The notes: generated from the sequence alone by a model not told the origin. Counted from the stretch's first letter, positions 59,993 to 63,828 are shown. The stretch is 64,000 nucleotides of DNA from an uncultured Thermoplasmatales archaeon (GCA_964517155.1 CAZFAZ010000049.1:3012-67011); one strand, 5' to 3'. A program made the numbers and translations.

Positions 59993-61108
59993 TTATTTAT
60001 AAGTTCTGTAGCCATCTTTATCTATATATAATTCGTTTTGTTCAAGAATCACATGATTTTCAATTGCCAAGAACGCTTTTCCTTCTAGTAGTATATCATT
60101 ACCGTATCTAATGAAAACTGGGCCAGACATTGATATATTAAGTGATTCATTGCTTCCATCATCTGTAAAAAGCCTTAGATGACCGACACTTTCAACTCCA
60201 AAATTTTGATATATCTCAGTTTGAATTTTATTAGAGCCTTTTGCAGTGCCTGCACATTCAACGGGTATCCAACCATTTATACCAAGATTTCCACCTACAA
60301 ACACTTCAACCCAAGCATGAGGTACCGCAGATATTTTTTCATCATCATAATCTGTTAATATGCCACGTATGAAACGTGCAGGTATATCTAAAGCCCTGCA
60401 AAGTGACATATAAAGAATTGATAAGTCATCACAATCCCCTGCTTTATCATAAAATGTTTTAGATGCGGTTTGAACAGTATAATCTCCAGGATGAGTTTTA
60501 TAATTTGTATTATTTTTAAGCCATACAAAAAGGTTTTTTGCAACAATAAAAGAATTAGTAGTGCCAGATTCTAATAAAACAGTTTCAGCTACATTTTTAA
60601 TAGCGGGATTATCTGAGTTCACATACACAGTGTCATTATGTACCTGCGGTTGGCAATATTGTTTCACTAGCTCAGGATAATCTGTTTTAATTTCATTTAT
60701 AGTTAATGCATCTTTACCGTTTAAGTCATAAAAAATAAAACTTTGTGCTATAACATCTGCCTCGACACCAAGAACATAATTATTGCTATCTTTACTTTTT
60801 ATATTCCATCTAATCATATCATTGCTTGCAATTTTTTCTATCTGATGAGCGTAAGAGTCATTTATAACTTCATAAGAAATTGTTCCAGGTGTTAAAACTT
60901 GAGGTATATCGCAATCATATTTTATTTCGTAATTACCAGAACCTGTAGAATTTATAAAATAACCATATCTTATTTTATAACTAATTTTTGTTGGATGTGG
61001 TTGATATGTAATGCTGCCATCATCAAATTTTAGTATATCAACACAACCGGTTAATGCTAAAAAAGAAAGAACAACTAAACATATTACTACATTTATCTTT
61101 TTATACAT
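59993..61108 (-). CDS. Lipoprotein with transglutaminase-like domain
   Basis: Signal peptide with lipobox-like LALTGC; core GDCDDLSILYMSLCRALDIPARFIRG ... HAWVEVFV ... Cys-His-Asp arrangement. Confidence 0.6.
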   Translation of the reverse strand: MYKKINVVICLVVLSFLALTGCVDILKFDDGSITYQPHPTKISYKIRYGYFINSTGSGNYEIKYDCDIPQVLTPGTISYEVINDSYAHQIEKIASNDMIRWNIKSKDSNNYVLGVEADVIAQSFIFYDLNGKDALTINEIKTDYPELVKQYCQPQVHNDTVYVNSDNPAIKNVAETVLLESGTTNSFIVAKNLFVWLKNNTNYKTHPGDYTVQTASKTFYDKAGDCDDLSILYMSLCRALDIPARFIRGILTDYDDEKISAVPHAWVEVFVGGNLGINGWIPVECAGTAKGSNKIQTEIYQNFGVESVGHLRLFTDDGSNESLNISMSGPVFIRYGNDILLEGKAFLAIENHVILEQNELYIDKDGYRTYK

Positions 61109-61110
61109 TT

Positions 61111-62973
61111 TTACCTGCTAAAAAAGCCTTTTTTATTTGTTTGTAGAGACATTTTATATTTACATCCTTGGCTCATCGGGCATTTAATGCATTTTGGATT
61201 ATCAACTGTGCAGAAATTTTCAGCAAGTTTTGCAAGTGAATCAAGGTATTTGTAAACATTTTCATTCATTTTTTCTGCTTCTTTGGTAAGTGCTTTAATT
61301 GCTTCATCCGGATCATCAGTGTCAACCCATCCTAATCTTTTTGCAACGCGTCCAACGTTTTTTGCTTTATCTGTTACATTTGCCTTTTTTTCAATAGTAG
61401 GTTTTGGTGTTGCATATGTCATAGGCTCTGCTTTTGGTATTTCTACTTTTGGAACACTAGGTGCTGGTGCTTCAAAGGCGTCTTCGCCGCCTTTACGTGA
61501 GATTCCTACTGATTTGCCACCGTGATTGGTTTCGCGTGTACGGATCTCAGCCATAACTGGCATTTGAAGACCTGCGCCAGAAATTAGAGCGACACCGATA
61601 GGTAATCGTTGTATCTCACTATATGTTTGACTTGTAAGACCTTCAACTGATTGAATAATTGCTTTTAAATCATTAGGATTTGTAACTTTTAAAATGATAT
61701 TTGTGTTACATTGAGAAATAATATTTTTATCTACTTTTGCAGGACGCTGAGAAACAATACAAAGTCCCATCCCAAATTTACGGCCTTCTGATGCAACAGT
61801 TCTTAAGATATTTGAAGAAACTGCACTTCCAAATCCTCTCTCTGGGCAATAGTTGTGTGCTTCTTCAACAACAAGTAAAAAAGGAGGGATTTTACCTGCT
61901 TTTCTATCATCAAAAAGCTCTTTTGTAAGCCTTGTAACAACTACATCCTGAACATCAGGTGCAACACCCTTCATATTAATAAGTGCACATTTGCCTTTTT
62001 TAACAAGTTCACTTGTAGGTGTACCATTTTCAGAGAACACACCTATGCTGTCAAGTGATTCAAGAGACGCTATTACATTCCATCGAGCATTGCTTTTACT
62101 GCGGTTTACAGCATCAATTATATCTCTTAAGTTATAAATTGATTTGTATTCTTTAACTTCTTTAATTGCTTGATACAAAACACCTATTTGAGGTCCTGAT
62201 AGTTTTGCAGATAAAAGATCGATAATCTCCCGGGCTTTAAGATTCAAACCATTTAATGTAATGTGGTTTATACTGCCCCTGCTACCTATTGGAGAATATT
62301 CATTTATCTGGCTTTTATAATCCTGTTTTTTTATGTTGAAACGTTCCATGTTTTTTTGATCTTTAAGACTTTTATTAGATTCAGTTAAAGAATGGTATTC
62401 GCCATGTGTATCAATAATTACAAGTGGTACATCATGTTTTAAAAGCTCTTCAATAATAACACCACAGGCATAACTTTTACCACCGCCAGTTTTTGCAAGT
62501 ATACAAATATGTTTTTGAACTAAAGCATCAATATTTAGATAAACAGCAAGGCTGTGGCCTTTTAAAAGACCAATATATGCACCGTTTTCTTTACTAGCAC
62601 TTAGGCCTAAAACATGGCGAATTAAATCTTCATTTGCACGAATAAGTGCAGTACCTGCACGAAAGGGAGTTCGTGGGCTTTGAAGAAGACCTTTGTTATC
62701 GCGATAGCCTATAACATCTGCAATAGCAGAAACACTAGTCTTGATAGTGTGCGGTGTTTCACCAGAGTGCATCAGCATAGCGACATCTTCAAATTTTAAA
62801 TCACTTATTTCTTTAAGATCCATTATCTGCGCAAGCATATTGCCCTCTTTATGAGGTGCAAAAATATAATCAAACTTACGTAAATTTTGTCCGTTTACTG
62901 CAAAATTAAATTCATTACTTCCTACATCGCCGTAGATATAGCCGACAATATCTTTTTTTTCTTGTTCTTGCAT
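61111..62973 (-). CDS. HerA/FtsK-like (DUF87) P-loop ATPase with C-terminal Cys4 cluster motif
   Basis: N-terminal HAS-barrel-like region, Walker A LAKTGGGKSY, Walker B LLVVEEAH, C-terminal FCTVDNPKCIKCPMSQGC (C-x6-C-x2-C-x5-C). Confidence 0.65.
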   Translation of the reverse strand: MQEQEKKDIVGYIYGDVGSNEFNFAVNGQNLRKFDYIFAPHKEGNMLAQIMDLKEISDLKFEDVAMLMHSGETPHTIKTSVSAIADVIGYRDNKGLLQSPRTPFRAGTALIRANEDLIRHVLGLSASKENGAYIGLLKGHSLAVYLNIDALVQKHICILAKTGGGKSYACGVIIEELLKHDVPLVIIDTHGEYHSLTESNKSLKDQKNMERFNIKKQDYKSQINEYSPIGSRGSINHITLNGLNLKAREIIDLLSAKLSGPQIGVLYQAIKEVKEYKSIYNLRDIIDAVNRSKSNARWNVIASLESLDSIGVFSENGTPTSELVKKGKCALINMKGVAPDVQDVVVTRLTKELFDDRKAGKIPPFLLVVEEAHNYCPERGFGSAVSSNILRTVASEGRKFGMGLCIVSQRPAKVDKNIISQCNTNIILKVTNPNDLKAIIQSVEGLTSQTYSEIQRLPIGVALISGAGLQMPVMAEIRTRETNHGGKSVGISRKGGEDAFEAPAPSVPKVEIPKAEPMTYATPKPTIEKKANVTDKAKNVGRVAKRLGWVDTDDPDEAIKALTKEAEKMNENVYKYLDSLAKLAENFCTVDNPKCIKCPMSQGCKYKMSLQTNKKGFFSR

Positions 62974-63018: not shown

Positions 63019-63828
63019 TTATATTTTTTGTAATTTTTCTTCGAGATATGCAGGTAGTTGTGCAAGTACCATTAGTGCTTCGATTTCCATGAAATGAAGA
63101 CTGCCTGGAACAACAATACTATGGAGTGGTTCACCAAAATCTTCTTCTATTAACTCTTTAATAATTCCTGCTTTAACAACAGGTTTTTCCGATCCTGCTC
63201 GAGCAACGACGCAAACTACAGTTTTTTCATCAAATAATTTTTCTTTAACTTTTTTTTCCATTTCAAAAAGAAGATTTAATCCTTCATTTGCAGTCATATA
63301 ACGTTTCTTATCTTCCTGTATATCAAGTAAAACCAATGTATGTAAACCCATTTTTTTGTTATTTTTTATCACCTCATATGGACTTGTTGGAAAGTAATTT
63401 CTTTGAGGATATGCTAGTGTTGTAGTGCGGCCAAACTTGTAGTTTTGCAAACCTAATAAACCTGAGACGGCTGTTACAATACTGCTACCGTGTATTACTT
63501 TTGTTTTAATTCCTTGTTTTTTTGCTCTGATACTCAAATCAACATGTGTTGTAGCAGTCATAGAATCTCCCGCTGTTAAAAAAACAGTTTTTTGTTTTTC
63601 TGCAGAGTTAATTATTAACTCTCCTTTTTCTGTTTCTTCTCGATTTAATATAACTATTTTTTTACCAAACAGTTTTTCTAGTTTTTCAATATTTGTTCCA
63701 ACTAGTTTTGCTGTGTAGAATTCTGCAAAAATTTTGTCTGCTTTTTTTATTTCATCAAGTCCTTTTATTGAGATATCTTTTTCATCGTATAGTCCAAGTC
63801 CAATAAATGATAAAGTTCCTTTTATCAT
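63019..63828 (-). CDS. dph5: Diphthine synthase
   Basis: N-terminus LSFIGLGLYDEKDISIKGLDEIKKADKIF typical of Dph5 (tetrapyrrole methylase fold), 269 aa. Confidence 0.85.
   Translation of the reverse strand: MIKGTLSFIGLGLYDEKDISIKGLDEIKKADKIFAEFYTAKLVGTNIEKLEKLFGKKIVILNREETEKGELIINSAEKQKTVFLTAGDSMTATTHVDLSIRAKKQGIKTKVIHGSSIVTAVSGLLGLQNYKFGRTTTLAYPQRNYFPTSPYEVIKNNKKMGLHTLVLLDIQEDKKRYMTANEGLNLLFEMEKKVKEKLFDEKTVVCVVARAGSEKPVVKAGIIKELIEEDFGEPLHSIVVPGSLHFMEIEALMVLAQLPAYLEEKLQKI

Follow-up and report, generated by a model that had tools for sequence, protein, structure and literature searches.

Organization of the locus

The locus lies on the minus strand of a 64-kb stretch of DNA from an uncultured Thermoplasmatales archaeon (the window) and comprises dph5, a gene for a 620-aa ATPase and a gene for a 371-aa transglutaminase-like lipoprotein. 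The open reading frames of the ATPase and the transglutaminase-like protein were both confirmed on this strand, and the stop codon of the first is only 2 bases from the ATG of the second. The features discussed below are as follows.

63019..63828, minus strand: dph5 (diphthine synthase; TIGR00522, 349.9 bits against a cut-off of 114.3), directly upstream of the ATPase gene
61111..62973 including the stop codon, minus strand: ATPase gene, HerA paralogue with a predicted C-terminal EndoIII-derived Fe-S domain, 620 aa
62755..62946, minus strand: N-terminal HAS-barrel-like domain, residues 10-73 (weak Pfam match; alignment with HerA 4d2i begins at residue 10)
61498..62577, minus strand: RecA-like HerA/DUF87 ATPase core, residues 133-492, ending in a conserved RETxHGG
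62473..62496, minus strand: Walker A, AKTGGGKS, residues 160-167
61855..61878, minus strand: Walker B, LLVVEEAH, residues 366-373
61390..61497, minus strand: Pro/Lys-rich linker, predicted disordered, residues 493-528
61138..61389, minus strand: predicted EndoIII/MutY-derived [4Fe-4S] cluster domain, residues 529-612, with no HhH motif and no catalytic Lys/Asp
61162..61212, minus strand: predicted Fe-S cluster loop, C588-x6-C595-x2-C598-x5-C604
61114..61134, minus strand: conserved basic-aromatic C-terminal tail, KKGFFSR, residues 614-620
59993..61108, minus strand: transglutaminase-like (papain-fold) lipoprotein gene, 371 aa, directly downstream of the ATPase gene
61043..61108, minus strand: predicted signal peptide with lipobox LTG-C22
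60257..60562, minus strand: transglutaminase core, residues 183-284, with Cys226 (GDCDD), His264 and Glu284

A HerA-type motor core

The ATPase matched Pfam DUF87 over residues 133-352 (E=9.9e-35, 121 bits against a cut-off of 23.2), which places it in the FtsK/HerA superfamily, and HerA_C was matched over residues 398-465. Residues 10-479 aligned colinearly with Sulfolobus solfataricus HerA (PDB 4d2i). In this alignment Walker A (ILAKTGGGKS) corresponds to ILAATGSGKS of HerA, Walker B to VIEEAH, and an SQRP motif containing a conserved Arg to the SQRP of HerA. Walker A was invariant in the alignment of close homologues, as were E370, E371, A372 and H373 of Walker B. The initial annotation had described a HerA/FtsK-type ATPase on the basis of the two Walker motifs, and the DUF87 match and the motif alignment bear this assignment out at the level of sequence. 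The protein also matched several solved HerA hexamers among PDB chains, and by analogy with these structures it presumably assembles into a hexameric ring and moves along DNA.

The N-terminal region aligned with the HAS barrel of HerA rather than with a VirB4-like N-domain. Its HAS-barrel Pfam score was weak and below the cut-off (14.7 against 25.2 bits, E=0.033), while relatives of the ATPase scored 21-23 bits (E about 1e-4). An AlphaFold model of the whole protein, built with 17 close orthologues, reached a pLDDT of 42, which is too poor to judge the HAS-barrel fold or the placement of the tail relative to the ring; we therefore set this model aside and limited our structural reading to a model of the C-terminal domain.

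Relation to canonical HerA and a wider paralogue family

The scores of the ATPase against the NCBIfam HerA equivalogs were far under their cut-offs (NF040819, 147.9 bits against 970; NF040937, 135.5 against 800), and the protein is therefore not a canonical HerA. It differs from Sulfolobus HerA, with which it shares the RecA-like core, the Walker motifs, SQRP and probably the HAS barrel, in having the linker, the Fe-S domain and the basic-aromatic tail, and in its recurrent neighbours, which are dph5, DUF357 or the lipoprotein gene rather than NurA, Mre11 or Rad50. A Pfam scan of the 33 larger open reading frames of the window found none of these three, in agreement with the earlier remark that a NurA neighbour is missing, and all three were likewise absent from the annotated neighbourhoods of the relatives inspected.

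A family search with the ATPase returned 500 cluster representatives at E<1e-30. Many archaeal proteins in this set have cores 40-50% identical to that of the ATPase yet differ at their C-termini, which are missing, K-rich or made up of other domains. The family has members in Micrarchaeota and Woesearchaeota, and some members contain inteins. Among the 50%-identity clusters of the family, no more than five or six carry the Cys4 tail. Members without the Fe-S domain, such as P0286 (489 aa) and the DPANN proteins P0145 and P0151, share the RETxHGG core end, and then either stop right after the core or carry a K-rich tail with an amphipathic end, another C-terminal domain or inteins. The gene that follows in the family is often DUF357, overlapping or abutting the 3' end of the ATPase gene, and Hef or Lhr helicase genes lie upstream in relatives. 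These comparisons place the ATPase in a broader family of archaeal HerA paralogues whose C-terminal tails are interchangeable.

The C-terminal domain corresponds to the cluster subdomain of EndoIII/MutY

The initial annotation had likened the C-terminal Cys4 motif to the cluster loop of endonuclease III and MutY because of its spacing. The likeness extends to homology: TIGR01084 (mutY, NCBIfam) matched ATPase residues 529-609 (E=2.9e-5), and a profile built from 21 C-terminal segments retrieved EndoIII 9nzc (E=5.6e-10) followed by further EndoIII, ROS1 and MutY chains. The model of the C-terminal domain folded confidently into the EndoIII cluster subdomain. Pfam gave nothing significant for the isolated C-terminal 92-136 aa; HhH-GPD reached only E=0.17 over 27 residues and EndIII_4Fe-2S was silent.

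None of the four Cys varied among the 120 close homologues or in the distant clusters that also carry the tail (P0121-P0124), and the Fe-S tail is kept in at least 80 related Thermoplasmatota species. Across four clusters whose cores are as little as 47% identical, the Cys and their flanking helices stayed the same, in contrast to the freely drifting linker next to them. The RVAxRLG helix of the domain was invariant or nearly so, and the basic residues K597 and K605 are kept in and after the Cys loop.

The similarity is confined to the last third of the glycosylase. It starts at about EndoIII residue 139, so that the last ~85 residues of the ATPase correspond in sequence and fold to EndoIII residues ~139-203, with the RxxxRLG helix and the C-x6-C-x2-C-x5-C loop in common. 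The helix-hairpin-helix, the Gly/Pro-Asp loop and the catalytic Lys of EndoIII and MutY are missing from the ATPase. All four divergent clusters with the tail share one domain boundary, ahead of which lies only the low-complexity linker and no HhH region. Because the HhH motif and the catalytic Lys are missing, and because the position of the catalytic Asp of glycosylases is occupied by an invariant Ala537, the predicted module cannot be a glycosylase; the cluster domain of this enzyme family is here joined instead to a ring ATPase. The first reading of the sequence had overlooked that the fold is reduced to its C-terminal third, with neither HhH nor catalytic residues.

A non-exhaustive, word-index profile search for the domain in other architectures turned up no stand-alone copies or other fusions: all matches were short pieces of this ATPase, from contig ends or mis-called genes, and one of them (P0328) begins at an internal Met.

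Linker and C-terminal tail

The low-complexity Pro/Lys-rich linker noted earlier ahead of the Cys domain was seen at about residues 493-528. Its sequence and length vary among orthologues, and its pLDDT is low. In P0122-P0124 it is 100-150 aa longer and still of low complexity, with no extra domain.

The protein ends in the basic-aromatic tail, for which a function can at present only be proposed. A K-x-G-[FL]-[FL] motif was found at this end in 114 of 120 close orthologues, and other family members have longer versions (KKGLFAKYF, KSLFKKIFG and KKGNLFRKIFGGG). A simple soluble repair helicase would leave this tail unexplained.

The downstream gene encodes a predicted lipoprotein

The downstream protein matched Pfam Transglut_core (E=2.9e-17, 63.3 bits against a cut-off of 23) and PDB 3isr, a putative cysteine protease (E=1.4e-6). 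A lipobox-like pattern was present in 65 of 75 orthologues, among which G21 and C22 of the lipobox and Cys226 and His264 of the core were at least 90% conserved. The lipobox, the transglutaminase core and two members of the Cys-His-Asp triad described in the initial annotation thus held up, but the third triad residue appears to be Glu rather than Asp: reading of the alignment puts a conserved Glu284 (WIPVE) at the expected Asp position, before which the 3isr alignment stops. The protein resembles transglutaminase-like cysteine proteases in its core, Cys and His, and differs from them, it seems, in this third position, as well as in its archaeal lipobox and in N- and C-terminal flanks that contain no known domain. 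It is probably exported and lipid-anchored, as a surface cysteine peptidase or protein-modifying enzyme.

A conserved housekeeping neighbourhood

Synteny was examined in 80 Thermoplasmatota species genomes, in which the loci were found by a scan with the full-length ATPase alignment. The lipoprotein gene lay directly downstream of the ATPase gene in 69/74 species genomes and 49/53 metagenome loci, so the pairing proposed earlier is syntenic in related genomes. A lineage only 58% identical has the pair as well, there with DUF357 between its two members. Gene order in the flanks is less stable than this pairing, lipoprotein-rpS12 adjacency being kept in only 14/58; together with the recurrence in the 58%-identical lineage, this is some evidence for a real link.

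However, dph5 lay directly upstream of the ATPase gene in 75/76 species genomes, and because this unrelated gene, whose product is an enzyme that modifies a translation factor, is even more tightly linked than the lipoprotein gene, synteny cannot be read as functional coupling. The lipoprotein gene was missing downstream in 5/74 species that retain the ATPase with its Fe-S tail, and in more distant relatives DUF357, not a transglutaminase-like gene, comes right after the ATPase gene. Median identity among orthologues was 46% for the lipoprotein versus 71% for the ATPase. The conserved lipobox would place the lipoprotein in a different cellular compartment. In about 19 species the lipoprotein gene heads a methyltransferase / second transglutaminase-like / acyltransferase cluster, and a homologous cluster sits 54 kb away in the window.

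A GGGG Shine-Dalgarno-like element was present 7-10 nt upstream of the ATPase ATG at nearly all orthologous loci. In the window a TATATATAAAA box precedes the ATG by 27 nt, but it was not conserved across these loci. Conservation of the GGGG element without that of the box favours an internal cistron over a gene with its own promoter, and dph5, the ATPase gene and the lipoprotein gene are probably co-transcribed with dph5 as the first cistron.

The genes of the window include those for the PolD small and large subunits, SRP RNA, MCM, aEF-2, S7 and S12. Rfam and tRNA scans of the window gave nothing within or beside the cluster, and no mobile-element genes were found near the ATPase gene in the window. 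The locus is a vertically inherited housekeeping and informational neighbourhood.

Possible roles of the ATPase

On balance we lean towards a hexamer that translocates DNA and binds it through a non-catalytic [4Fe-4S] module; the lipoprotein is probably co-transcribed, extracytoplasmic and uncoupled from it in function. The 620-aa protein would then belong to a separate archaeal family of HerA paralogues, specific to uncultured Thermoplasmatota, and be composed of a HAS barrel and a RecA-like FtsK/HerA motor, which in the Thermoplasmatota lineage gained a C-terminal module on a flexible Pro/Lys linker. This module would consist of the last third of an EndoIII/MutY-type glycosylase, that is, three or four helices and a Cys loop predicted to ligate a [4Fe-4S] cluster. 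By homology, it is most likely a non-catalytic, cluster-dependent binder of the DNA backbone, possibly one that senses redox state or DNA damage. Six copies per ring may recruit the motor to DNA or hold it there in repair, recombination or chromosome handling. The general plan is like that of FtsK, in which a flexible linker joins the motor to a C-terminal DNA-binding module, the gamma domain. The ATPase would be the middle cistron of the dph5-ATPase-lipoprotein cluster, and the tie of the lipoprotein to it is likely to be positional, through shared transcription, and not mechanistic.

The Cys4 domain might instead hold no functional [4Fe-4S] cluster, being a Zn-binding or structural remnant of an nth-like fusion that takes no part in binding DNA. 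The loss of two-thirds of the glycosylase fold, among it the N-terminal helix packed against the cluster domain in EndoIII, speaks for this, but the Cys are spaced exactly as in the cluster loop, the Cys and flanking helices are invariant beside a drifting linker, the modelled fold is confidently that of the cluster subdomain and K597 and K605 are retained, and a remnant seems very unlikely. Similar doubt attaches to the idea that the ATPase is the functional HerA of its lineage, acting in double-strand-break end resection with NurA and Mre11-Rad50 encoded elsewhere and with the Fe-S tail as an accessory DNA-end binder. In NCBIfam and PDB it is HerA proteins that match it best, its predicted HAS barrel, its motor and its C-terminal RETxHGG follow the order seen in Sulfolobus HerA, and the DNA-repair helicase genes Hef and Lhr adjoin the gene in relatives. 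Its scores, however, are about one-sixth of the equivalog cut-offs (148 versus 970), NurA, Mre11 and Rad50 are all missing from the 64 kb and from the neighbourhoods inspected, DUF357 rather than NurA is the gene that recurs alongside, and the family forms a cluster of its own, spread over DPANN and Thermoplasmatota, whose cores are 40-50% identical to one another; we consider such a role highly improbable. HerA fusions are common in defence islands, and the initial annotation had hinted at a defence or translocation module formed by the ATPase and the lipoprotein. An anti-phage or anti-plasmid system comparable to HerA-SIR2 or HerA-DUF4297 is scarcely credible here. PADLOC HerA models matched the ATPase (best 160 bits), but these matches are generic and partial, no effector (SIR2, DUF4297 or nuclease) is present and neither the lipoprotein nor dph5 has a PADLOC match. 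Defence genes are patchy in distribution, whereas this ATPase is single-copy, 66-84% identical among species and fixed in the core genome next to dph5, amid rpS12/S7, aEF-2, MCM and PolD and with mobile-element genes absent nearby in the window. The defence reading was rejected on the missing effector and the core-genome synteny, and the module claim drew no support, dph5 being linked more tightly and DUF357 standing in the place of the lipoprotein gene in distant relatives.

A further possibility, which we judge unlikely, is that the ATPase and the lipoprotein form one envelope module, in which a membrane-held HerA-type DNA pump works with a lipoprotein that remodels the outside during DNA exchange or segregation at division. 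The basic-aromatic tail would anchor the pump, compare CedB/CedD, TdtA/HepA and FtsK, which are membrane-associated translocases of the same superfamily, and the Fe-S domain would grip DNA. MinD is targeted to membranes by an amphipathic helix, and the KKG[FL]F[KR][KR] end and the longer KKGLFAKYF, KSLFKKIFG and KKGNLFRKIFGGG tails resemble this helix. The 2-nt gap and the 69/74 adjacency amid broken flanking synteny, and the recurrence of the pair around DUF357 in the 58%-identical lineage, speak for the envelope module, as does the precedent of HerA-clade ATPases that move DNA across membranes in archaea and Thermus (PMC11868833). Against it, the tail of this ATPase has seven residues only, half a MinD-type helix, and the protein has neither a transmembrane segment nor a VirB4-like N-domain. 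It scored far below the Ced models (CedD, 110 bits against a cut-off of 600; CedB, 14.9 against 700), no channel or pilus genes lie nearby and the cluster contains no conserved membrane channel protein. The sequence of the lipoprotein changes quickly and its gene has been lost locally in five species, and the synteny argument is weak given the still tighter linkage of the clearly unrelated dph5 (75/76). A broader form of the idea, to which we give slightly less credence, would make the whole family an archaeal FtsK/SpoIIIE-type peripheral-membrane hexameric DNA pump with an amphipathic tail anchor and DUF357 as ancestral partner; in Thermoplasmatota the DNA grip would have been replaced by the [4Fe-4S] module, working with the lipoprotein in segregation or intercellular DNA exchange.

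Significance of the fusion

We found no description of this architecture in the literature on HerA-EndoIII fusions and HerA paralogues, and the combination of a HerA-like ATPase with an EndoIII Fe-S domain seems to be undescribed. After decades of work on the Fe-S cluster loop of EndoIII and MutY, the purpose of the cluster (structure, DNA binding or redox signalling) is still debated. Here the cluster subdomain appears to have been separated from the glycosylase active site and fused to a ring ATPase, where strong purifying selection has maintained it in at least 80 species, which provides a natural test case for what it does alone. The analysis also draws attention to an uncharacterised family of HerA paralogues whose members are widespread among archaea (Thermoplasmatota and DPANN) and in some cases contain inteins. 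Its usual neighbour, DUF357, is a near-universal archaeal single-copy marker gene of unknown function; the literature on DUF357/COG1849 describes no function for it and mentions it as a marker gene only. Automatic pipelines mislabel C-terminal fragments of the ATPase as 'endonuclease III' or 'adenine glycosylase', which could inflate repair-gene counts in metagenomes.

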